From contig JACRCZ010000085.1 of NCBI GenBank assembly GCA_016218765.1, positions 871-64,870 on the forward strand: a stretch of 64,000 nt of DNA, in the 5' to 3' direction. The stretch comes from Deltaproteobacteria bacterium. GTDB lineage: Bacteria > Myxococcota_A > Polyangia > DRWM01 > JAAZOP01. How positions within the stretch are numbered: the first letter of the stretch is position 1; the number at the start of each line of letters is the position of its first letter. Positions 1 through 8,223 of the stretch are shown here, piece by piece. The notes below the pieces were generated by a model that saw only the letters and a program-made list of their open reading frames with translations, searched no databases and was not told the DNA's origin. Both the position numbers and the translations under genes were made by a program.

Positions 1-17
1 ACGATGGAGGCGAACTG

Positions 18-353
18 ATGCTCGAGATCGCGGGAGTCGAGAGCGAACTGGCCGCCGCGCGCGCATTCGCCGACAAGGTCGGCCTTCGCGACGACCTCGA
101 GCGGCAGCTGACCTACTTGGACGAGTACGCCGAGCACGGCGACCGCGGGAGGACCTGCTGTCGGCTCTACCGGGATTTCGCGCCCTACAGCTTCGGGTTC
201 GTCATGACCGTCCGCCGCGAGGGCGGCGTCCACAAGACGTGGTTCAACGGCGGCCTCCTGTTCCACGGTCCCCACGATCGAGGCGGCGATGGCAACGAGC
301 CGACCTTCGCCGTCTGCCTCACGCCCACGATGGGCTGGGCGATCCACACGTAG
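18..353 (+). CDS. hypothetical protein (111 aa)
   Basis: ORF with diverse amino-acid composition. It ends just before the GGAGGTG SD of the next gene. I recognise no family by eye. Confidence 0.4.
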   Translation: MLEIAGVESELAAARAFADKVGLRDDLERQLTYLDEYAEHGDRGRTCCRLYRDFAPYSFGFVMTVRREGGVHKTWFNGGLLFHGPHDRGGDGNEPTFAVCLTPTMGWAIHT

Positions 354-364
354 GAGGTGAACCG

Positions 365-1333
365 ATGTTCGAGAAGGCCCGGGCGGTGGAGACCGCCGTC
401 CATGCGATCCACCGCCAGTTCGGGGCCGGTAGCATCCTGTCGCTCGGCGACGGCGGCGCCGTCGAGCCGCTCGCGGCCATTTCCACGGGGTCCATGGGCC
501 TCGACGCCGCCATCGGCGTCGGGGGGCATCCCCGCGGCCGCATCGTGGAGTTGTTCGGGCCGAAGGGAGGCGGCAAGACGACCCTCGGGCTCCACGCCGT
601 TGCGGCGGCCCAGGCCACCGGCGGCATCGCCGCGTTCGTGGACGCCGGTCACACCCTGGACATCCGCTACGCCGCCGCGGTCGGGGTGCAGGTGGACAAG
701 CTCTACCTCTCGCAGCCGGACACCGGCGAGCAGGCCCTCGAGATCGTCGAGATCCTCTGCCGCTCGGGCGGCGTCGATCTCGTCGTCGTCGATTCCGTGG
801 GCGCCCTCGTGCCCCGCGCCCAGATCGAGGGCGAGGCGTTCGGCGAGTACGATGGGCTGCAGGCGCGGCTCCTGAGCCAGGCGCTGCGCAAGCTCACAGC
901 CGTCGCGCACCGCACCGGGACGTGCGTGCTGTTCGTGAGCGAGGTCGAGCGCGGCGCGACCGTCCCCTGCGCCAACGCGCTCAAGTTCTACTCGTCCGTG
1001 CGCATCGAAGTCCGGCACGTCCAGGACGCGAAGGACGGGGAGCGGACGCTGGGGCACGTGACCCGCGTCCGGGTCGTCAAGAACAAGGTCGCCCGTCCGT
1101 TCGGGGAGGCGGAGTTCGTCATTCGGCACGGGACGGGAATCGACCACGTCGCGGAGCTGGCCGAGCAGGCCATCACGCTCGGGGTCTTCGACGGATCGGC
1201 GGACCTGCCGGTTGCCGTCGCGCGCGACTCAGGGAAGCTGGCGACGGCGCTGCGGGAGAACGAGAAGCTGCGCCGCTTCGTGGAGGCGGAAGTGCGCGGG
1301 AGGCTCGGACTCCCGGAAATCGCTCGTTCCTGA
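365..1333 (+). CDS. RecA-family recombinase paralog (divergent)
   Basis: ATG preceded by GGAGGTG. Collinear with E. coli RecA over its full length: Walker A GPKGGGKTT, SQPDTGEQALEI, Walker B LVVVDSVGAL, NALKFYSSVR, VKNKVARPF. It deviates at the catalytic Glu (DAGHTLD vs DAEHALD) and has a shortened L2 loop. Confidence 0.85.
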   Translation: MFEKARAVETAVHAIHRQFGAGSILSLGDGGAVEPLAAISTGSMGLDAAIGVGGHPRGRIVELFGPKGGGKTTLGLHAVAAAQATGGIAAFVDAGHTLDIRYAAAVGVQVDKLYLSQPDTGEQALEIVEILCRSGGVDLVVVDSVGALVPRAQIEGEAFGEYDGLQARLLSQALRKLTAVAHRTGTCVLFVSEVERGATVPCANALKFYSSVRIEVRHVQDAKDGERTLGHVTRVRVVKNKVARPFGEAEFVIRHGTGIDHVAELAEQAITLGVFDGSADLPVAVARDSGKLATALRENEKLRRFVEAEVRGRLGLPEIARS

Positions 1334-1356
1334 CCATCGGCATCGAGGAGGAGAAG

Positions 1357-1557
1357 ATGAAGACCAAGTACACGGCCCGCGGGCCGAAGGGGGCGGTCCG
1401 CCGTCCGCTCGTCTGCCGCACGAGCGACCTCGACTTCGACTTCGGCGCCCCGCTGCTGCCGGACGGCCCCGCGCTGGGCAACCGCTGGCGCGTCGAACAC
1501 GTCGAGGAGGAGCGCGGGATGAGGGCGGACATCTACCGGGCCCTGGGGCTCGCGTAG
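1357..1557 (+). CDS. hypothetical small protein (66 aa)
   Basis: ATG preceded by GAGGAGGAG. It sits tightly between the RecA-like and clamp-like genes. No family recognised. Confidence 0.45.
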   Translation: MKTKYTARGPKGAVRRPLVCRTSDLDFDFGAPLLPDGPALGNRWRVEHVEEERGMRADIYRALGLA

Positions 1558-1566
1558 GAAGGGAGG

Positions 1567-2880
1567 ATGACGTTGACGACCATCGTCGCGGCGAAGCCGC
1601 TCGCGGGCGCCCTGGGCGCCTGCGCCTGGTGCCTGGAGAAGGACCCGCTCCACTTCCACCCGGGGCGCACGCGCATCGCCCGGGTGCCGGACGCGCTGGT
1701 CCTGGCCACGGCGACCAGGACCGAGAAGGTGAAGCTCCGGTTCCGCATCTCGTGCGAGCCCGGCGAAACCTGGATGGCCGTGGTCGATGCCGCCGGCACG
1801 TCCCGCCTGGCCAAGGCGTTGCGCCCCGTCATCGCCGGCAGGAAGAACGGCGGCGCCACGGTCGAGATCGAGCGCACCGAGCGCGCGCTCGTGCTGGCCG
1901 GCGGCGGCCAGCGGATGTCCGTACCGGCCTGCGAGCCGATGCCGGAGGACGCGGAGGCGCCGCGCGCCGGCGAGGCGACCAGCGTCGCGGGGGCGCGCGA
2001 TCTGGCGTCGCGGATCGCCGACGCGATGACGTTCTGCAAGCCCGCGGAGTACCGTGCCATCGCGAAGGGGCCGTTCGTCTACCTGGCGGCCGGCGACGGC
2101 GGCCTCGTCGTCCCGGTGGTCGTCGCCACCGACGGCCACCGGCTGTTCGTGGACGGCGACGCCAGGGACTGCGCGGACGCCAAGTTCGTGTTCCAGGTGC
2201 CCGGGGACGACTGGAAGCCGGCGGCCAGGGCGATGGTCGAGAGCTTCGACTTCGTCCGGCTCGTGCGCACCGTCGTCCCCCAGCCGGCCGAAGAGGACGG
2301 AAAGAAGGCGCAGGAGAAGTCGCTTTGGTGCCTCGTGTTCGAGTCGGCCGACCGGCGGGTCGAGATCGCCGTCGGCGAGCCCGAGACGTCGCTCCCGCAC
2401 TGGGCCGGCTTCGTGCCGCGGGAGACGGCGAATCCCGACCTGTCGGTCGCCTGCGACCGCGACGAGCTGGCGGCCGCGGTCAAGGCGACGGCCGGCGTGA
2501 GCAGCGAGAACGGCGCGGCCTGCATGTTCCGTGCGGACCCCGCGACCGGGCTGCTGCGGATCGCGACGTACACCGACGCCGACGGCGGGACGGCACAGCG
2601 CGAGATCGCGGCCGACATCCGCCATGCCCCGGCGGGCTTCGTGCACCTCTCCGGAAAGTACGTCCTGGACGCGCTCGGGGCGGTCCGAACGGACCGCGTG
2701 CGCATCTGGCAGCACGCCGCACCGCTCGACGCGGTCCGGCTCATCGAGGTCGCCGGCGACGGAGCCACGCTCCGGCCCCGCGCGATGGTCGTCATGCCCA
2801 TCCGCGGCCACGACCCGGTGGAGAGCACGAGTGCCGACGAGTCGGCGCAGGACGCCGCCCCGCAGGCGGCTGCGCTGTAG
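1567..2880 (+). CDS. DnaN-like beta sliding-clamp homolog (437 aa)
   Basis: The VVATDGHRLF motif matches DnaN VATDGHRLA. The C-terminal third is collinear with E. coli DnaN domain III (LSGKYVLDALGAV..., ...AMVVMPIR vs FNVSYVLDVLNAL..., YVVMPMRL). GGGAGG lies directly upstream, so the start could be TTG at 1573. Confidence 0.7.
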   Translation: MTLTTIVAAKPLAGALGACAWCLEKDPLHFHPGRTRIARVPDALVLATATRTEKVKLRFRISCEPGETWMAVVDAAGTSRLAKALRPVIAGRKNGGATVEIERTERALVLAGGGQRMSVPACEPMPEDAEAPRAGEATSVAGARDLASRIADAMTFCKPAEYRAIAKGPFVYLAAGDGGLVVPVVVATDGHRLFVDGDARDCADAKFVFQVPGDDWKPAARAMVESFDFVRLVRTVVPQPAEEDGKKAQEKSLWCLVFESADRRVEIAVGEPETSLPHWAGFVPRETANPDLSVACDRDELAAAVKATAGVSSENGAACMFRADPATGLLRIATYTDADGGTAQREIAADIRHAPAGFVHLSGKYVLDALGAVRTDRVRIWQHAAPLDAVRLIEVAGDGATLRPRAMVVMPIRGHDPVESTSADESAQDAAPQAAAL

Positions 2881-2902
2881 CCGGCAGGAAGGAGACATCG
2901 AC

Positions 2903-3424
2903 ATGAGGATCATCATGATCGCCGTCGTCGTCGCCACGATCGGGACGGGGTGCTCGAAGATGGAGGAGCCCGGCAGCATCCCGGTGACCATCAACGCCGA
3001 TGTCGCCGCGCTGCCCCGGCGGTGCCCGGCGTGCGCCGAGTGCCCCGAGCCGGAGCCGTGCCCCGAGTGCGAGACGGTGGATGCGATCTACTACTCGATG
3101 CTCCACCGCATCGAGCGCGGGAGGCCGGAAGGCTACGTCAGCACGGCCCACGTCCATCGGGGCGGCAGGTGGTACCTGGTCGCCAACGTGTTCCCGGACG
3201 GGATGGAGGGCCCGAGCGGCGCGCCGGTGGCCGACTTCGACGTCGGCAACGCGCTGCTCGCCCACGTTCGCGCGCACCCCACGGACGTCGGCGTCAAGAC
3301 GATCGCCGGCGACGACTACGCCCAGCGCGGCCGCGTGCTGGCGAGTTGGCAGCCGTTCGACCGGATCGAGGACGCGCCCGGCATCCGGGCCTCGCTCGCC
3401 AGCGTGTTCGTGCTTCTGGAGTAA
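2903..3424 (+). CDS. putative lipoprotein with CPxC-rich segment
   Basis: N-terminal MRIIMIAVVVATIGTGC (signal plus lipobox-like Cys). GGAAGGAG SD upstream. Contains a CPACAECPEPEPCPEC motif. Confidence 0.6.
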   Translation: MRIIMIAVVVATIGTGCSKMEEPGSIPVTINADVAALPRRCPACAECPEPEPCPECETVDAIYYSMLHRIERGRPEGYVSTAHVHRGGRWYLVANVFPDGMEGPSGAPVADFDVGNALLAHVRAHPTDVGVKTIAGDDYAQRGRVLASWQPFDRIEDAPGIRASLASVFVLLE

Positions 3425-3432
3425 TCACGGTG

Positions 3433-3472
3433 GGCGGGTCTCCCGGGGGCAAGCTCTCCCGGGGGACCCGCC
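3433..3472 (+). terminator. GC-rich stem-loop between the lipoprotein and radC-like genes
   Basis: GGCGGGTC (3433-3440) pairs with GACCCGCC (3465-3472). Inner duplicated TCCCGGGGG palindromic units could extend the stem. There is no U tract. Confidence 0.3.
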
Positions 3473-3490
3473 GACATCAGGGAGGACAAC

Positions 3491-3934
3491 GTGACCATCT
3501 GCCATTGCCCGCGGTGCGGCGAGCCGGTGCCGGCGGAACAGGCGCCGCCGTCGCTTCGCTGCTCGGCCGAGGTCTACGAGAAGTTGGGGCGTTCCCTCGC
3601 CCGTCGCAGGCAGGAGCGCTTCGTCGTAGTGGCACTCGATGCGCGCAACCGGCCCATCCGCTGCCACGTCGTCGCCGTCGGCTCCGTCGCCGCAGTCGTC
3701 GTGCATCCCAGGGAGGTGTTCGCGCCGCTCATCCGCGACAGGGCGGTCGCCGCGATCGTCCTGCACAACCACCCGTCGGGCGGGCCGGTCGAGCCCAGCG
3801 TCGAGGACGCCGAGATCACGCGTCGCCTCGCCGACGTGGGCCGGCTACTCGGCATTCCGCTGCTCGATCACGTCATCGTGGGGAAGAACGGGTACTGCTC
3901 GATGAGGGATCTGGGCCAAGTCCGCTTCCCGTAG
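3491..3934 (+). CDS. radC: RadC-like JAB/MPN domain protein
   Basis: GTG start with GGGAGG SD. Carries the JAMM-type motif HNHPSG, then EPSVEDAEITRRL and LLDHVIVG, typical of the RadC C-terminal domain. An N-terminal CxxC is present. Confidence 0.85.
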   Translation: MTICHCPRCGEPVPAEQAPPSLRCSAEVYEKLGRSLARRRQERFVVVALDARNRPIRCHVVAVGSVAAVVVHPREVFAPLIRDRAVAAIVLHNHPSGGPVEPSVEDAEITRRLADVGRLLGIPLLDHVIVGKNGYCSMRDLGQVRFP

Positions 3935-4132
3935 CAGCCGCGATGGCGACGTTGATCCCGGACCGGAAGATGGCGTACGACGCATTCGTCCGGGCGCCTG
4001 CCGGTCGAGGACGGCCGCGTCCGCACGGACCACGGAGCCGTGCCGTGACAGGTGTCGGGAGGAAGGCGCCGACATCTTCTTCGACCGCCGACGTGGCGAT
4101 TCCGCTATCGTCGGTGATCGCTCGAAACGGGG

Positions 4133-6151
4133 GTGATGGCAATGCGGAACACTCGGACATCGAACAGGCGGAAGGAGGGGAAACGCTCGCGGGCCGACAT
4201 CGAGAGGGTGGCCGGCTTGCGGAAGCGCTTCGCCACGCTCGCCGCGCAGCTGGAACTGTCGACGACCGAAGGGGTGAAGCAATCCACGCTCGGTTTTGAC
4301 CCGATGCCTCCCGCGAAGTTGGTCGCTTCTTGGCTCGACCGGACGGGGGCCGCTGCGCCCACGGTCGCGACGGCGTGTCGGACCTGCGACGCTCGGGGCC
4401 GTACCTGCCCACGGCCTCTGGAGCGGCCCCGGTACCTGCCCGCCGACTGCATCCCGTGCGTAGAGCAGTGCGAGGCGGCCCTGCGGTGCCTTCCGCCACC
4501 GGTCGACGCCACCGGCATCGCCCGTGGTGAGCCGCGGAACCAGGAGGCTCGGGGCAACGGTCACCCCCTCGAAACGGCGTCGAGCCATGTGGAGCCTGCC
4601 CGTTCGCGGCCGACTGGATCGGCCGATTCGCTACCAGCCGGGCGACGCGATCATCCCCGGGCCGATCGGTGCGTGCGCGGGCTCTCGACAGACCTCGCCT
4701 CCGCGGGCGAGGCGACGTCGGCGACTCGGACAGCGGAACATCTCTCGCGGCAGAGAGATCTGGCGGCTGCGCGCGTCGAGCGAATCGACCGCGCTCTGGC
4801 TGCCCCCTGCATAGCTGGACTGCCCGGAAGTTGCTCCCGGCTCTTCCCGGACGTGGTCAGGCTCGGGGTCGTCCGCTTGCGCGCTCCCCGTCTGCGCCCG
4901 CTGTCGGTTCTGCTCGACTGGGTCGGCTCGCATGGTGCCGTGCCCCAAGAGCCTCGGGCGTTCATCGATGCCCTGGAGGTTGCGTCGGACCTGAGGTGGC
5001 ATCGCTCCCGCTGCGGCGGCTGTCTATCCGCTCAGGCTTGGTCCGGTCATCCCACGGGCGACATCCCGATGGTGCAGTCGACGGCAGCGTCTCTTGAGCA
5101 GGCCGTGCAGGACCTGGAGATTCGGCCAGGTTTCGCTCCCGAGGAACGAGAACGCGTCGCCACGCTGATCGCAGCGTCCGGCGACTTCGAGATCCACATG
5201 GCGAGCAAGGCGCCCCGTCTTGATGATGATGACCTCACCGCGGAAGTCGACCACTTCTACGACTGGTTCAGGGGCGCCTACCACTGGGCGTTCTACGCGC
5301 CTCGCGGCGTCCAGGGCCAGCCTCGCGCCGTCCGGGACTACGTCGCCTACGCGGAGCGAGAGGCGATCCGGAAGGCTCTCCGCGCGGGCGCACGGGTGCT
5401 TCGGACCTCCGACGGCGACTTCGACGAGGTGCTTTCGAAGGCCGAAGATGTCGTCAGAACCGCAATGCGAGGGTTCTACCGGGCGTTCGAGCCGGAGGCC
5501 GTGGCGTTCCTGACCGGGAAGCGAAAGCACGGAGGCTGGACGCTCGACGCGTTGCGGATGCCGGTCGCCTGGAAGCCGGAGGGCCTCTACTGGCCGTATG
5601 CCGCCACCCTCGAAGGCTGGTTCGAAGTTCGCTGCATGCGCTTCATCGGTCCCCTGTTGCTGCTCATGGGTGTCGGACTGCGAGCGATGGTCGAGCAGGA
5701 CGATCGGGTAGAGCGGGATTTCGCCCGCATCTGCGCCGAGCTTGGACACACGGGGAGGGACCCCATAGTGTGGGTCGCGAAGCTGGTCCCATCGATTCGA
5801 TTTGAACTCGTCAGGGCGTGGAGTCGAGCTCGGGCGGGTGCGGACCCCAGGGCGGCGGCGCTGATGGACCTTCTTGAGGGAGTGCCACGACTGAGCAAGG
5901 CGGCGAAGTCCCGCGGCGGCCTGCTCCCAGCCTTCGCCGCGGATGCGCTGGAAGCCATGCTGCGCGGAGTCAGCCTCGATTCCATCCGCAACCTAGCCAC
6001 CAAGCACTCCAAGAGCGCCCGCGAGAAGACCGAGGCCCGGCCGCGACGAAGGGCGAAGAAGCCGAGCACTCGGGCGTGTCGGCGGACCGCCGACCGCACC
6101 GGCGACGCAGTCCCCCGCCACCCGCATTCCGTCACGACACGTCCCGGGTAA
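4133..6151 (+). CDS. large hypothetical protein (up to 672 aa; alternative start ATG 5069)
   Basis: Third-codon-position G/C is strongly enriched along the whole frame, as I read it codon by codon. The C-terminal half (from MVQSTAAS) has ordinary protein composition with a basic tail. No family recognised. Confidence 0.5.
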   Translation: MMAMRNTRTSNRRKEGKRSRADIERVAGLRKRFATLAAQLELSTTEGVKQSTLGFDPMPPAKLVASWLDRTGAAAPTVATACRTCDARGRTCPRPLERPRYLPADCIPCVEQCEAALRCLPPPVDATGIARGEPRNQEARGNGHPLETASSHVEPARSRPTGSADSLPAGRRDHPRADRCVRGLSTDLASAGEATSATRTAEHLSRQRDLAAARVERIDRALAAPCIAGLPGSCSRLFPDVVRLGVVRLRAPRLRPLSVLLDWVGSHGAVPQEPRAFIDALEVASDLRWHRSRCGGCLSAQAWSGHPTGDIPMVQSTAASLEQAVQDLEIRPGFAPEERERVATLIAASGDFEIHMASKAPRLDDDDLTAEVDHFYDWFRGAYHWAFYAPRGVQGQPRAVRDYVAYAEREAIRKALRAGARVLRTSDGDFDEVLSKAEDVVRTAMRGFYRAFEPEAVAFLTGKRKHGGWTLDALRMPVAWKPEGLYWPYAATLEGWFEVRCMRFIGPLLLLMGVGLRAMVEQDDRVERDFARICAELGHTGRDPIVWVAKLVPSIRFELVRAWSRARAGADPRAAALMDLLEGVPRLSKAAKSRGGLLPAFAADALEAMLRGVSLDSIRNLATKHSKSAREKTEARPRRRAKKPSTRACRRTADRTGDAVPRHPHSVTTRPG

Positions 6152-6192
6152 CTGCGACCGCCGCGTACTGGCCCGGGCGGTAGCCTGGGTTC

Positions 6193-6435
6193 ATGCTCGG
6201 ACGCAGGCCATCGCAACTTCGTCTTCGGCGCCTGGCCCTCGGTCTTCGGATCCGCGATGTGGCGAACGCCTGCGGTCTCGCGGACGCCAGGGTCTCCGAG
6301 ATCGAGCGCGGGGACGGCAGAAACCCTGACGCCGTCGAACTGGCGCTGATCGAAGCGACCCTGCGCAAGAACGAAGCTGCTGACGAGTCGACGGCCCCGG
6401 CGCAGAGCCCGCCGGACCGACGGGGGCTGGCATGA
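6193..6435 (+). CDS. XRE-family helix-turn-helix regulator (80 aa)
   Basis: LRRLALGLRIRDVANACGLADARVSEIERG is a classic Cro/C1-type HTH. The stop overlaps the next start (ATGA). Confidence 0.7.
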   Translation: MLGRRPSQLRLRRLALGLRIRDVANACGLADARVSEIERGDGRNPDAVELALIEATLRKNEAADESTAPAQSPPDRRGLA

Positions 6436-7139
6436 CCGACCGAGTCCCCGGCCACCTGACGGCCCAGAGCGGGACGAACGGCACCGCGCCGTCGTCCGAA
6501 GGTGACCGACCGGCGTCGTCGTGGTGGTTCACCGCGGAGCAGGCCGCCAAGTACGTCGGCTACCGCGGTTCCTCCGCCATTCGCATGGCCGTATGCCGCG
6601 GGGCGCTCGTCCCCCGCGGGCGACGCGGCCGCGCGCTGATGTTCCACCGAGCAGATCTCGATTCGTTCCTCCAGCGGGGTGCCCGCATTGGCGGGCACCC
6701 GCTTCCCGATCAGCTGGCAACGGAGGCCGGCAACCATGAGACGGAAGACGAAGTACCCCGGCGTGACGCAGATCGGCCCGGGCAGGTACGAACTCCGCGC
6801 CCAGATCCGGGTGGCGGGCTCGGACAAGTGGACCTGGGTCAGGAAGCGCGTCGAGGCGGCCAACACCGAGGAGGCCGCCGACGCCCAACGCAAGCTCCGG
6901 ACGGACCTAGTGTCCGCGAAGACCGAGGCCCCGTCATCCCCGCAGTACCCGACCCTTACGGACTACGCGCGATCGTGGCTGGCCCGGAGGAAGACGAGGG
7001 GGGCGAAGCCGTCGACGCTCGCGAGAGCGGCGCAGGTCCTGGAGCAGGGGATCCTTCCGGTGCTCGGCGACCGCAGGGCGGACGAGATCCGGAAGAACGA
7101 CATCGAGGAGTGGCTCTCGTGGGCGGCGAAGAGCCGTAG
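6432..7139 (+). CDS. xis: excisionase/MerR-type HTH DNA-binding protein (3' end uncertain)
   Basis: WFTAEQAAKYVGYRGSSAIRMAVCRGALVP...FHRADLDSFL resembles Xis/AlpA winged-helix proteins. The start is translationally coupled to the XRE gene. The frame has no stop until 7139, so about 400 nt overlap the integrase out of frame. Confidence 0.5.
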   Translation: MTDRVPGHLTAQSGTNGTAPSSEGDRPASSWWFTAEQAAKYVGYRGSSAIRMAVCRGALVPRGRRGRALMFHRADLDSFLQRGARIGGHPLPDQLATEAGNHETEDEVPRRDADRPGQVRTPRPDPGGGLGQVDLGQEARRGGQHRGGRRRPTQAPDGPSVREDRGPVIPAVPDPYGLRAIVAGPEEDEGGEAVDARESGAGPGAGDPSGARRPQGGRDPEERHRGVALVGGEEP

Positions 7140-7962
7140 CCAGAAGCGGCGCATCCGGTCGCCCGAGACGATCAACGGGTGGCTGCGCCTCCTGAAGACC
7201 GTGCTCCGCGACGCCGTCGGCGACCTCGATCTTCCTCGCGACCCGACCTTCCGCGTCAAGGGTCTGCCCGCACGTCCCACCCGTATCACCGACGAGCAGC
7301 CGAACTCGCTGACGGACGACGAGCTGCGGCGTTTCCTGGACGCGATGCCCGGGGAGACGGCCGAGATCCGCGCCCTCTGCGTGGTCGGGTTCTTCACCGG
7401 AATGCGCTTCGGCGAGATCTCCGCCCTGACGTGGAACGACGTCCGCGAGGACGCGGGGCTTCTGCTCATCCGCCGATCGCACTGGCGCGGGAAGGTCACG
7501 ACGACGAAGACCGGGAAGAACCGCTCTGCCGCGCTGCATCCGGTCATGCTGGGGGCGCTCCGCGAGCAGCGGAAGGTACTGCTGGAGCGCCACCTCCCGG
7601 CGATCGGCGCGGCCCTCGTGTTCCCGAGCGCGACGGGCGGCTACCACGTCCCGTCGTACCTCGAGAAGCCGTTCCGCCGGATCCTGAAGGCGGCGAAGAT
7701 CGAGAAGCACCTCTCGGCGCACGGGATGCGCCGGACGTTCAACAACCTCATGCGGCAGGCTCGCGTCGATCGTGTCGTGCTTCACGCGACGATCGGGCAC
7801 AGCTCGGAGTCGATGACGGAGCACTATTCGAACGTGCGCCCGGAGGAGAAGCTCGCCGCGGTCAACCAGCTGGTCGAGTCGGCGCGGCTCGATCAGATTT
7901 GGCTATTTCGTTGGCTATCGGGGGTCAACGGCACTTCGACGCCTTCGGGATCGTCGCCCTAA
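6736..7962 (+). CDS. int: tyrosine recombinase / phage-type integrase
   Basis: GGAGG SD 9 nt upstream. Has an N-terminal SAM-like domain and a C-terminal catalytic region (GMRFGEI, HGMRRTF, GHSSESMTEHY; R-H-R-Y pattern). It lies adjacent to a tRNA gene. Confidence 0.9.
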   Translation: MRRKTKYPGVTQIGPGRYELRAQIRVAGSDKWTWVRKRVEAANTEEAADAQRKLRTDLVSAKTEAPSSPQYPTLTDYARSWLARRKTRGAKPSTLARAAQVLEQGILPVLGDRRADEIRKNDIEEWLSWAAKSRSQKRRIRSPETINGWLRLLKTVLRDAVGDLDLPRDPTFRVKGLPARPTRITDEQPNSLTDDELRRFLDAMPGETAEIRALCVVGFFTGMRFGEISALTWNDVREDAGLLLIRRSHWRGKVTTTKTGKNRSAALHPVMLGALREQRKVLLERHLPAIGAALVFPSATGGYHVPSYLEKPFRRILKAAKIEKHLSAHGMRRTFNNLMRQARVDRVVLHATIGHSSESMTEHYSNVRPEEKLAAVNQLVESARLDQIWLFRWLSGVNGTSTPSGSSP

Positions 7963-7990
7963 ACCATCGACGCTGTTGCTGAAATCGGAG

Positions 7991-8062
7991 AGCGGGAGAC
8001 GGGATTTGAACCCGCGACGTCCACCTTGGCAAGGTGGCACTCTACCACTGAGTTACTCCCGC
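7991..8062 (-). tRNA. tRNA-Gly (anticodon GCC), CCA not encoded
   Basis: The reverse complement folds as a cloverleaf: acceptor GCGGGAG/CTCCCGC, anticodon stem CCACC/GGTGG with loop TTGCCAA, T arm GCGGG-TTCAAAT-CCCGT. Length 72 nt. Confidence 0.9.
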
Positions 8063-8085
8063 ACGCGCCACGCGGCGCGAAGGGC

Positions 8086-8115
8086 GCTCTACTCCGCAAG
8101 GTCGCGAGGTGTCAA
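8086..8115 (-). promoter_or_regulatory. candidate sigma70-type promoter for tRNA-Gly
   Basis: Minus strand reads TTGACA (8115-8110), 18-nt spacer, TAGAGC (8091-8086), about 24 nt upstream of the mature tRNA 5' end. The -10 is weak. Confidence 0.3.
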
Positions 8116-8191
8116 GCGGATTTCGAAGCCGCCGCGGACGACGACGGGGCGGACGAAACGGCGACCGGAGCGCCTGGGGCCAACTCGGAAG

Positions 8192-8223
8192 CCACTCCAA
8201 GGCCACTCCAATCGCTACTCCAA
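8192..8223 (+). repeat. three direct repeats C(C/T)ACTCCAA at 11-12 bp spacing
   Basis: CCACTCCAA at 8192-8200 and 8203-8211, and CTACTCCAA at 8215-8223. They lie in the intergenic region between tRNA-Gly and the Cys-rich lipoprotein gene. Confidence 0.6.

Follow-up and report, generated by a model that had tools for sequence, protein, structure and literature searches.

A divergent three-domain β sliding clamp encoded by an integrative element of an uncultured Myxococcota_A bacterium

Sliding clamps serve as a hub that governs which enzymes work on DNA. Here we describe a divergent paralogue of the β clamp DnaN, encoded near the start of a 64,000-nucleotide stretch of a Deltaproteobacteria bacterium genome (GenBank assembly GCA_016218765.1, contig JACRCZ010000085.1, positions 871 to 64,870; hereafter the window), whose guanine–cytosine (GC) content is ~71%. 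The gene (1567–2880, forward strand) starts at an ATG closely preceded by the ribosome-binding site GGAAGGGAGG and encodes 437 amino acids (aa). The open reading frame (ORF) listing bears out the features by which an initial annotation, made from the letters alone, had recognized it: the hallmark VATDGHRL (residues 186–193), a VVMPIR end (408–413) and a charged insertion (PQPAEEDGKKAQEKS, 238–252). The protein divides into domains I (~1–125), II (~135–285) and III (~290–413), with extra loops at ~121–136 and ~238–252; the cleft motifs are TDGHRL (188–193) and MPIR (410–413), and the carboxy terminus consists of a conserved G-x-D-P-x-E extension (414–419) followed by a disordered acidic tail (420–437). 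The clamp gene belongs to a co-directional, tightly spaced DNA-processing block formed by a DUF4120 gene, a RecA paralogue (in some lineages), a 66-aa ORF, the clamp and a RadC-like JAB-domain protein. As first described, it lies just downstream of the RecA-like gene with the 66-aa ORF alone between them, the gap measuring 233 nucleotides. Upstream of the block, relatives encode an exonuclease, a YifB/ComM-like ATPase, an AAA ATPase and a DUF3854 protein.

Standard family models barely register the protein. Pfam PF02768 (DNA_pol3_beta_3) gives just E 0.09 (13 bits against a cut-off of 27), PF00712 and PF02767 give no match, TIGR00663 scores 19.1 bits, below its cut-off of 137.65, and phmmer with the clamp against PDB sequences finds no relevant match. 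PHROG 947 (‘DNA polymerase processivity factor’), by contrast, matches residues 88–384 (profile positions 78–341 of 368, E 4.7e-12). A profile built from 16 homologues retrieves β clamps in 38 of 39 matches to PDB sequences (best E 2.9e-6); the TDGHRL hairpin and domain III are each matched separately. Aligned by hhalign with 20 canonical DnaN proteins, a set that includes those of Escherichia coli and of the host genome itself, the same family profile gives a probability of 99.9 and E 6.1e-36 over 362 aligned columns, spanning clamp residues 3–413 and E. coli residues 1–366 at 19% identity; the collinearity with E. coli β originally noticed for domain III thus covers the whole protein. An AlphaFold2 monomer model (predicted local distance difference test score (pLDDT) 81, predicted template modelling score 0.76) repeats its strand and helix pattern as in the three clamp domains. 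Foldseek comparison of this model with the PDB returns β clamps for all of the top 50 matches (E ~1e-21, target template modelling (TM) scores 0.72–0.80, ~427 aligned columns), and against BFVD there are 134 matches at E ≤ 0.001, the 42 best of which are β-clamp or DnaN-like proteins of phages and other prokaryotic viruses (best E 7.5e-19), with eukaryotic-virus PCNA proteins ranked lower. The protein at 1567–2880 is a true three-domain β clamp with the DnaN fold. Support for the three domains comes from PHROG 947, the family profile, hhalign and the structure model, whereas Pfam and TIGR00663 alone do not give it, and a reader relying on Pfam would have reached the opposite conclusion. A metal site formed by Cys19, Cys22 and Cys63 was also considered and dropped, since these cysteines, conserved in the close family, are missing from its distant members P0020 and P0021.

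Comparison with housekeeping DnaN (E. coli P0A988; TIGR00663; PDB codes 1MMI, 5AGU and 6AMS) shows a full-length collinear protein at target TM scores of 0.72–0.80, sharing the TDGHRL and MPxR motifs and equivalents of Y323 and P242. Unlike those proteins, the element clamp is ~19% identical to the canonical sequence, scores 19 bits on TIGR00663, short of the 137.65-bit cut-off, and lies outside the dnaA–dnaN locus; it is also ~70 residues longer than E. coli β (437 versus 366 aa). Phage and prophage clamps (PHROG 947; Aurantimonas phage AmM-1 gp50; Caulobacter phage Sansa) have the same three-domain fold and provide the best family match (E 4.7e-12). They too travel on mobile DNA, surrounded by early or replication genes, and the stretches examined contain no polymerase gene. 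The nearest relatives outside the family, P0025 and P0038, are phage- or prophage-type DnaN proteins encoded among small early genes, P0025 near an MT-A70 methylase; P0038 has a primase, a DUF3987 protein and a Tad2-like gene nearby. The 5–13 kb read around the two contain no polymerase. The statement that extra clamps are uncommon on mobile DNA was too strong where phages are concerned, as the 42 best BFVD matches and PHROG 947, itself a family of such clamps, make plain. Several features nonetheless set the element clamp apart from phage clamps. Phage-type relatives pass all three Pfam clamp models, which the element family fails; the element clamp carries the GxDPxE extension, an acidic tail after MPxR and fixed cleft substitutions; and it resides in an integrase/tRNA element without recognized virion genes, whose other cargo is of the recombination type, and is always preceded by a private ORF of 63–67 aa.

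The host genome (assembly of 5.9 Mb, 79.6% complete) encodes its housekeeping DnaN elsewhere, between dnaA and gyrB (G000:C42; 245.8 bits on TIGR00663), and this protein shares 23% identity with the element clamp over 155 aa. The view that the clamp is an extra copy and not the housekeeping gene is therefore upheld. In a FastTree phylogeny of 78 DnaN-like proteins, all members of the clamp family group together (SH-like support 98), and the branch that leads to them, at 0.73, is the longest internal one, the median being 0.10; host DnaN lies far away. Given this separate clade, its long branch and the distance from host DnaN, the clamp did not arise by recent duplication of host dnaN. The family is small, at ~17 proteins among 5.8 billion clusters, and a profile search of 1.84 billion representatives yields 8 matches at E ≤ 1e-30, then a gap before ordinary DnaN appears at E ≥ 1e-9. 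Across the phylum, 1 of 401 species-representative genomes carries the clamp (the host genome), and so do 4 of 151 relatives, all belonging to the same genus and making up four of its five genomes; within the genome samples searched, the family is thus that of a single genus, to which a few metagenomic contigs are added. A plasmid collection contained no clamp match. The sole match in a phage collection, and the best relative that carries an annotation, was the DnaN of Aurantimonas phage AmM-1, with 29.6% identity across 61% of the protein. The clamp family is a new, strongly diverged lineage, phage- and prophage-encoded clamps being already known.

One congeneric genome (G402) carries the clamp three times, intact in one copy, interrupted by an in-frame TAG in another and reduced to a fragment in the third (G402:C19:14848–16173, locus L018; G402:C947, locus L019), which implies several copies of the element at different stages of decay. 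Between elements, clamps are ~69% identical and RecA paralogues 80–83%. The ratio of non-synonymous to synonymous substitution rates (dN/dS; Nei–Gojobori) of the clamp between elements is ~0.45, probably inflated by extreme GC bias at third codon positions, and indicates moderate purifying selection.

That the clamp travels on mobile DNA, as the initial annotation supposed, is confirmed by an integrase/tRNA-Gly element border and by the same gene order in other genomes and in metagenomes. The tyrosine integrase at this border (6679–7962, forward strand, true start likely ~6736; Pfam Phage_integrase, SAM_3 and Int_M; PHROG 1, E 2.3e-61) stands beside the integration target, a tRNA-Gly(GCC) gene (7990–8062, reverse strand; ARAGORN). 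On a 305-kb contig of the congener G404 the same element abuts tRNA-Phe, and host-like genes start ~45 kb from the tRNA; no repeat of the tRNA-Phe 3′ end that would mark the left border was found within 3 mismatches, and we place that border roughly at 137–143 kb on the contig. The window's own element is cut by the contig end 870 nucleotides before the window, and its upstream half is absent from the host assembly, where DUF1257 has no match anywhere. Related loci supply the missing order: HTH_17, a PHROG-1218 exonuclease, a 491-aa AAA protein, DUF1257, DUF2997, a radical S-adenosylmethionine (SAM) protein, a DUF3150-like protein, a YifB/ComM-like ATPase, several small genes, DUF4120, recA (in some), the 63–67-aa ORF, the clamp, RadC, a ParB-like protein and the integrase. 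Further left in the relatives' elements stands the DUF3854 protein, which we take to belong to a Toprim-like Pfam family. None of the related loci examined has a recognizable gene for a DNA polymerase, a clamp loader, conjugation or a virion. A distant metagenomic element (L034, 6661–15849) encodes a 494-aa AAA protein, a DUF3150-like protein, a 401-aa DnaN and an integrase; its DnaN passes all three Pfam clamp domains and also has a tail after MPMR. Because L034 keeps the AAA, DUF3150-like and DnaN genes, clamp carriage looks old, which suggests that it is an old trait of this class of element.

We surveyed all clamp loci by tblastn and resolved seven distinct elements. The RecA paralogue of the window (365–1333, forward strand, 322 aa; Pfam RecA 314 bits, TIGR02012 338.9 bits) differs from E. 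coli RecA, on alignment, by an 8-residue deletion in the DNA-binding loop L2, by Gly in place of Glu96 (Asp in relatives) and by the loss of the acidic carboxy-terminal tail. Three of the seven elements (the window; G404, L002/L015; and L003/L004/L016) have a recA gene, placed between DUF4120 and the small ORF, and it is absent from the other four (L017 and L018, of the same genus, in which DUF4120 abuts the small ORF; L009; and L010–L012). Orthologues of the small ORF, 63–67 aa long, directly precede the clamp in all seven. The genetic link between RecA and clamp to which attention was first drawn is thus real in the window but specific to a lineage, and the proposed triad of recA, 66-aa ORF and clamp fails as a conserved module, with the small ORF in 7/7 elements and recA in 3/7. 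The survey leaves the small ORF and the clamp, usually with RadC, as the constant core; the RecA paralogue is accessory cargo of one sublineage. DUF4120 itself (18–353, forward strand, 111 aa; Pfam PF13496, E 4.2e-11) has orthologues of 67–88% identity in L002, L003, L017 and L018 and, in the elements of this genus, abuts recA where that gene is present and the small ORF where it is absent. The RadC-like JAB-domain protein (3491–3934, forward strand; Pfam PF04002, E 5.8e-38; PHROG 10276) has an N-terminal CxxC zinc-ribbon-like segment; its gene adjoins the clamp directly in L010–L012 and lies one gene off in the window, L003 and L018.

The 66-aa ORF directly 5′ of the clamp (1357–1557, forward strand) has its own AGGAGG ribosome-binding site and two conserved blocks, RTSDLDFDFGAP and RWR..VEEE.G.R.D.YR..GL. 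It has no family match in Pfam, NCBIfam, PHROG or PADLOC; 26 homologues among the 5.8 billion clusters make up its family, which tracks the clamp contigs. Within it, the most strongly conserved block, SDLDFDFG, loosely resembles the hexapeptide clamp-binding motif, a likeness that fades in distant members (TTFDPDF, DDEYDFG). Small ORF and clamp share a reading frame, with TAG and three codons between them. As a donor of a clamp-binding peptide the small ORF found no support, an AlphaFold2 model of the TAG-readthrough fusion leaving the small-ORF part unstructured (pLDDT 28–46), although the short linker and the shallow unpaired alignment make this a weak test of docking. The host genome also holds a second compact element without clamp or recA (G000:C5, ~46.8–54 kb; L025, 8854–15895), which encodes a PD-(D/E)XK-like exonuclease, a small-ORF homologue, a 238-aa protein, RadC, HTH_17 and an integrase; its diverged small-ORF homologue is P0191 (C5:50180–50380).

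Scanning the element proteins for clamp-binding motifs turned up one conserved pattern. It is the N-terminal tail G-Q-[VAIM]-P-L-P of the DUF3150-like protein (L008 10596–11525, L006 6173–7108, L010 2982–3920 and L009 2–904). Of the 18 full-length homologues closest to this protein, 15 carry the tail, all of them from clamp-bearing Myxococcota elements, as against none of ~80 more distant DUF3150 homologues; the tail could be a clamp-binding-type peptide and is a candidate for one. Neither RadC nor other element proteins have a conserved canonical clamp-binding motif at a terminus. A 139-aa protein of G404 (L008 16016–16435), whose end DYLDLFPVLGIE places a C-terminal YLDLF near QL[SD]LF, was dropped, as it has no orthologue in the other loci.

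To locate the functional surfaces of the clamp, E. coli positions were mapped onto it through the hhalign alignment. At the 20 positions that we take to line the E. coli cleft, 12 residues are identical (E. coli numbering: R152, T172, G174, H175, R176, L177, P242, Y323, V360, M362, P363 and R365), compared with 19% identity overall. Within the family, 12 of the cleft positions do not vary, and clamp residues T188–L193, P277, F282, Y365, L387, M410, P411 and R413 are the same in all 16 members. The hydrophobic cleft whose conservation the initial annotation wanted checked is largely kept, and the peptide-binding cleft is, as judged from the alignment, the best-conserved part of the clamp. Its subsites and the clamp-binding motifs QL[SD]LF and QLxLx[LF] have been described (PMC11621423). 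Three cleft changes are specific to the family and fixed in it: L155 to A, V247 to F and R246 to G. The usual terminal residue of a clamp is replaced by Gly, after which come the conserved G-x-D-P-x-E extension and the acidic tail (pLDDT ~32). In the dimer-interface strand, Q115 and R116 are conserved and hydrophobic residues are kept at 117 and 119, but the I272 equivalent is S or G. β clamps encircle DNA as closed rings made of head-to-tail homodimers, and the element clamp would presumably do the same. Loop II and some pore residues are altered relative to housekeeping DnaN.

The remaining genes between the clamp and the integrase are more varied. A lipoprotein-like ORF with the lipobox IGTGC (2903–3424, forward strand, start at 2903 or 2915) separates the clamp from RadC; it has weak orthologues in L003 (27%) and L018 (40%) and no family match in Pfam, NCBIfam or PHROG. 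It stands amid DNA-metabolism genes, and a role in exclusion or as a surface protein for the element is conceivable. Beyond RadC lies an orphan ORF of 672 aa (4133–6151, forward strand), with no family match in Pfam, NCBIfam, PHROGs or PADLOC and no similarity to the 545-aa protein found at the same relative position in L002, and after it an XRE-type helix-turn-helix regulator (6193–6435, forward strand; Pfam HTH_3, E 1.3e-7). A promoter and terminator scan of positions 1–8200 found none, which fits a single transcription unit but is uninformative at 71% GC. The upstream half of the relatives' elements contains a four-gene set (L008 9418–10567, L010 1823–2954) of the 491-aa Cdc48-clade AAA protein, DUF1257, DUF2997 and a small radical-SAM protein (Fer4_12). 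DUF1257 and DUF2997 otherwise occur in papers on cyanobacteria and algal organelle genomes. The 491-aa AAA protein was considered as a clamp loader and rejected, as it falls in the Cdc48/p97 (Cdc48/FtsH) clade; PADLOC gives the relatives' AAA protein a weak IetA-like match (E 1e-6).

What the clamp does must be weighed against the machinery that accompanies it. Pfam, PHROG and NCBIfam searches of the G404 element and its left flank (contig ~135–184 kb) found no DNA polymerase and no clamp loader, which sets this clamp apart from clamps of the T4-like or replicative-module type that come with their own loader or polymerase and leaves the idea of a dedicated clamp for an element-encoded polymerase unsupported. 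The host clamp, for its part, is exploited by many mobile elements, among which published accounts name Tn3-family transposons, a group II intron and phage Mu. On balance, we think it probable, if by no means secure, that the protein acts as the clamp of the mobile element and not of the host replisome, loaded by the host clamp loader and serving host polymerases, possibly along with element proteins, on element DNA. Loading on primed or recombination-derived 3′ ends would fall to the host DnaX complex, whose δ subunit docks in the cleft. From then on the clamp would hold host clamp-binding proteins (Pol III α, repair polymerases, ligase and the like), and perhaps those of the element as well, at the element's own DNA during its replication, establishment, repair or recombination. 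We infer loading by host DnaX because the element, though without a loader or polymerase of its own, keeps the surface that δ and polymerases use.

Four points weigh against this account. First, a dN/dS of 0.45 is relaxed relative to that of a core replisome gene. Second, the L155A, V247F and R246G changes, together with the Gly end and its extension, could shift the specificity of the cleft or occlude it. Third, of the E. coli DNA-contact residues listed in bioRxiv 10.64898/2026.08.18.745641 (K12, R24, R80, Q149, Y153 and Y154), most are replaced at the aligned columns (K12 by G/A, R24 by D, Q149 by A/G and Y153/Y154 by S/I), although the equivalent of R80 is retained, as R or K in 15 of 16 members, and basic residues (K10, K25) lie one position off. 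Fourth, many element proteins have no assigned function, so that a novel polymerase or loader is possible.

The same cleft changes, taken with the conserved neighbours, would fit an orthogonal platform, in which a retuned cleft and C-terminal extension make the clamp serve mainly element-encoded clients (the 66-aa ORF product, the RadC-like JAB protein and the DUF3150-like protein) over host polymerases. We regard this as unlikely. The 63–67-aa ORF before the clamp in 7/7 elements, usually with RadC after it, speaks for such a platform, as do the fixation of L155A, V247F and R246G in the family, the QxPLP tail in 15 of the 18 closest DUF3150 homologues and in none of the ~80 distant ones, and the loose fit of SDLDFDFG to the consensus QLxLx[LF] (PMC11621423). 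The candidate clients themselves, however, argue the other way: the fusion model of small ORF and clamp gave no sign of docking (a weak test), the small-ORF motif degenerates in distant members and a small-ORF homologue is present in a clamp-less element of the same genome; L034 pairs its DnaN with a DUF3150 protein that lacks the QxPLP tail, and RadC and other element proteins have no conserved canonical terminal clamp-binding motif. The stronger proposal, that the cleft with its GxDPxE cap no longer prefers host polymerases and recruits element proteins to element DNA ends or D-loops, we hold to be unlikely as well. If true, it would amount to a private clamp-and-client system that establishes or protects incoming mobile DNA.

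Conservation of the cleft can also be read as interference. The clamp would then be no processivity factor but a decoy or modulator that sequesters host clamp-motif proteins or forms mixed dimers with host DnaN, slowing host replication or repair or blunting a host response to the element's advantage. In keeping with this, the cleft is the most conserved surface of the protein while several DNA-contact positions are altered, the neighbouring RecA paralogue with its truncated L2 and replaced Glu96 looks like a regulator and not an enzyme, and no polymerase has been found for the element. Yet the protein keeps its full three-domain ring architecture, complete with inner helices and interface strand (Q115, R116), which is more than a pure decoy needs; phage clamps are common in modules without a polymerase; and PADLOC matches none of the window's proteins to a known defence system (no search was made of anti-defence families). 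We judge interference to be distinctly unlikely.

Very improbable, in our estimate, is target duplication, by which an insensitive clamp copy would guard its bearer against a clamp-targeting toxin or natural product. Its model is GriR of the griselimycin cluster, likewise a second, diverged dnaN paralogue outside the dnaA locus, which establishes that such a paralogue can be a self-resistance gene (PMC11621423); the subsite-1 substitutions L155A and V247F are fixed here, and toxin–antitoxin systems that target the clamp exist (PMC12795458). GriR, however, sits in a biosynthetic cluster and replaces clamp function under the drug, whereas the element clamp lies in an integrative element: neither a biosynthetic cluster nor a recognizable clamp-targeting toxin accompanies the gene in the loci examined, and so divergent an element-borne clamp would probably not take over chromosome replication from the host clamp. 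Least credible of all is a decaying, functionless paralogue carried along by the element, for although the dN/dS of ~0.45, the G402 copies with an in-frame TAG or reduced to a fragment and the loss of Pfam recognition would fit decay, full-length ORFs are intact in at least 15 homologues down to 30% identity, 58 columns are invariant and concentrated at functional sites, the structure model is confident and the operon position is conserved.

An element that has its own diverged clamp, with the cleft kept and no polymerase found, poses the question of whether such a clamp is there for supply, for specificity or for interference, and the 66-aa protein and the clamp, with RadC nearby, form a compact, testable pair for learning why integrative elements carry clamps. 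Because annotation by Pfam and TIGRFAM overlooks clamps of this kind, they are probably under-counted in mobile DNA. The family shows how far the peptide-binding cleft can persist while the remainder of the protein drifts.

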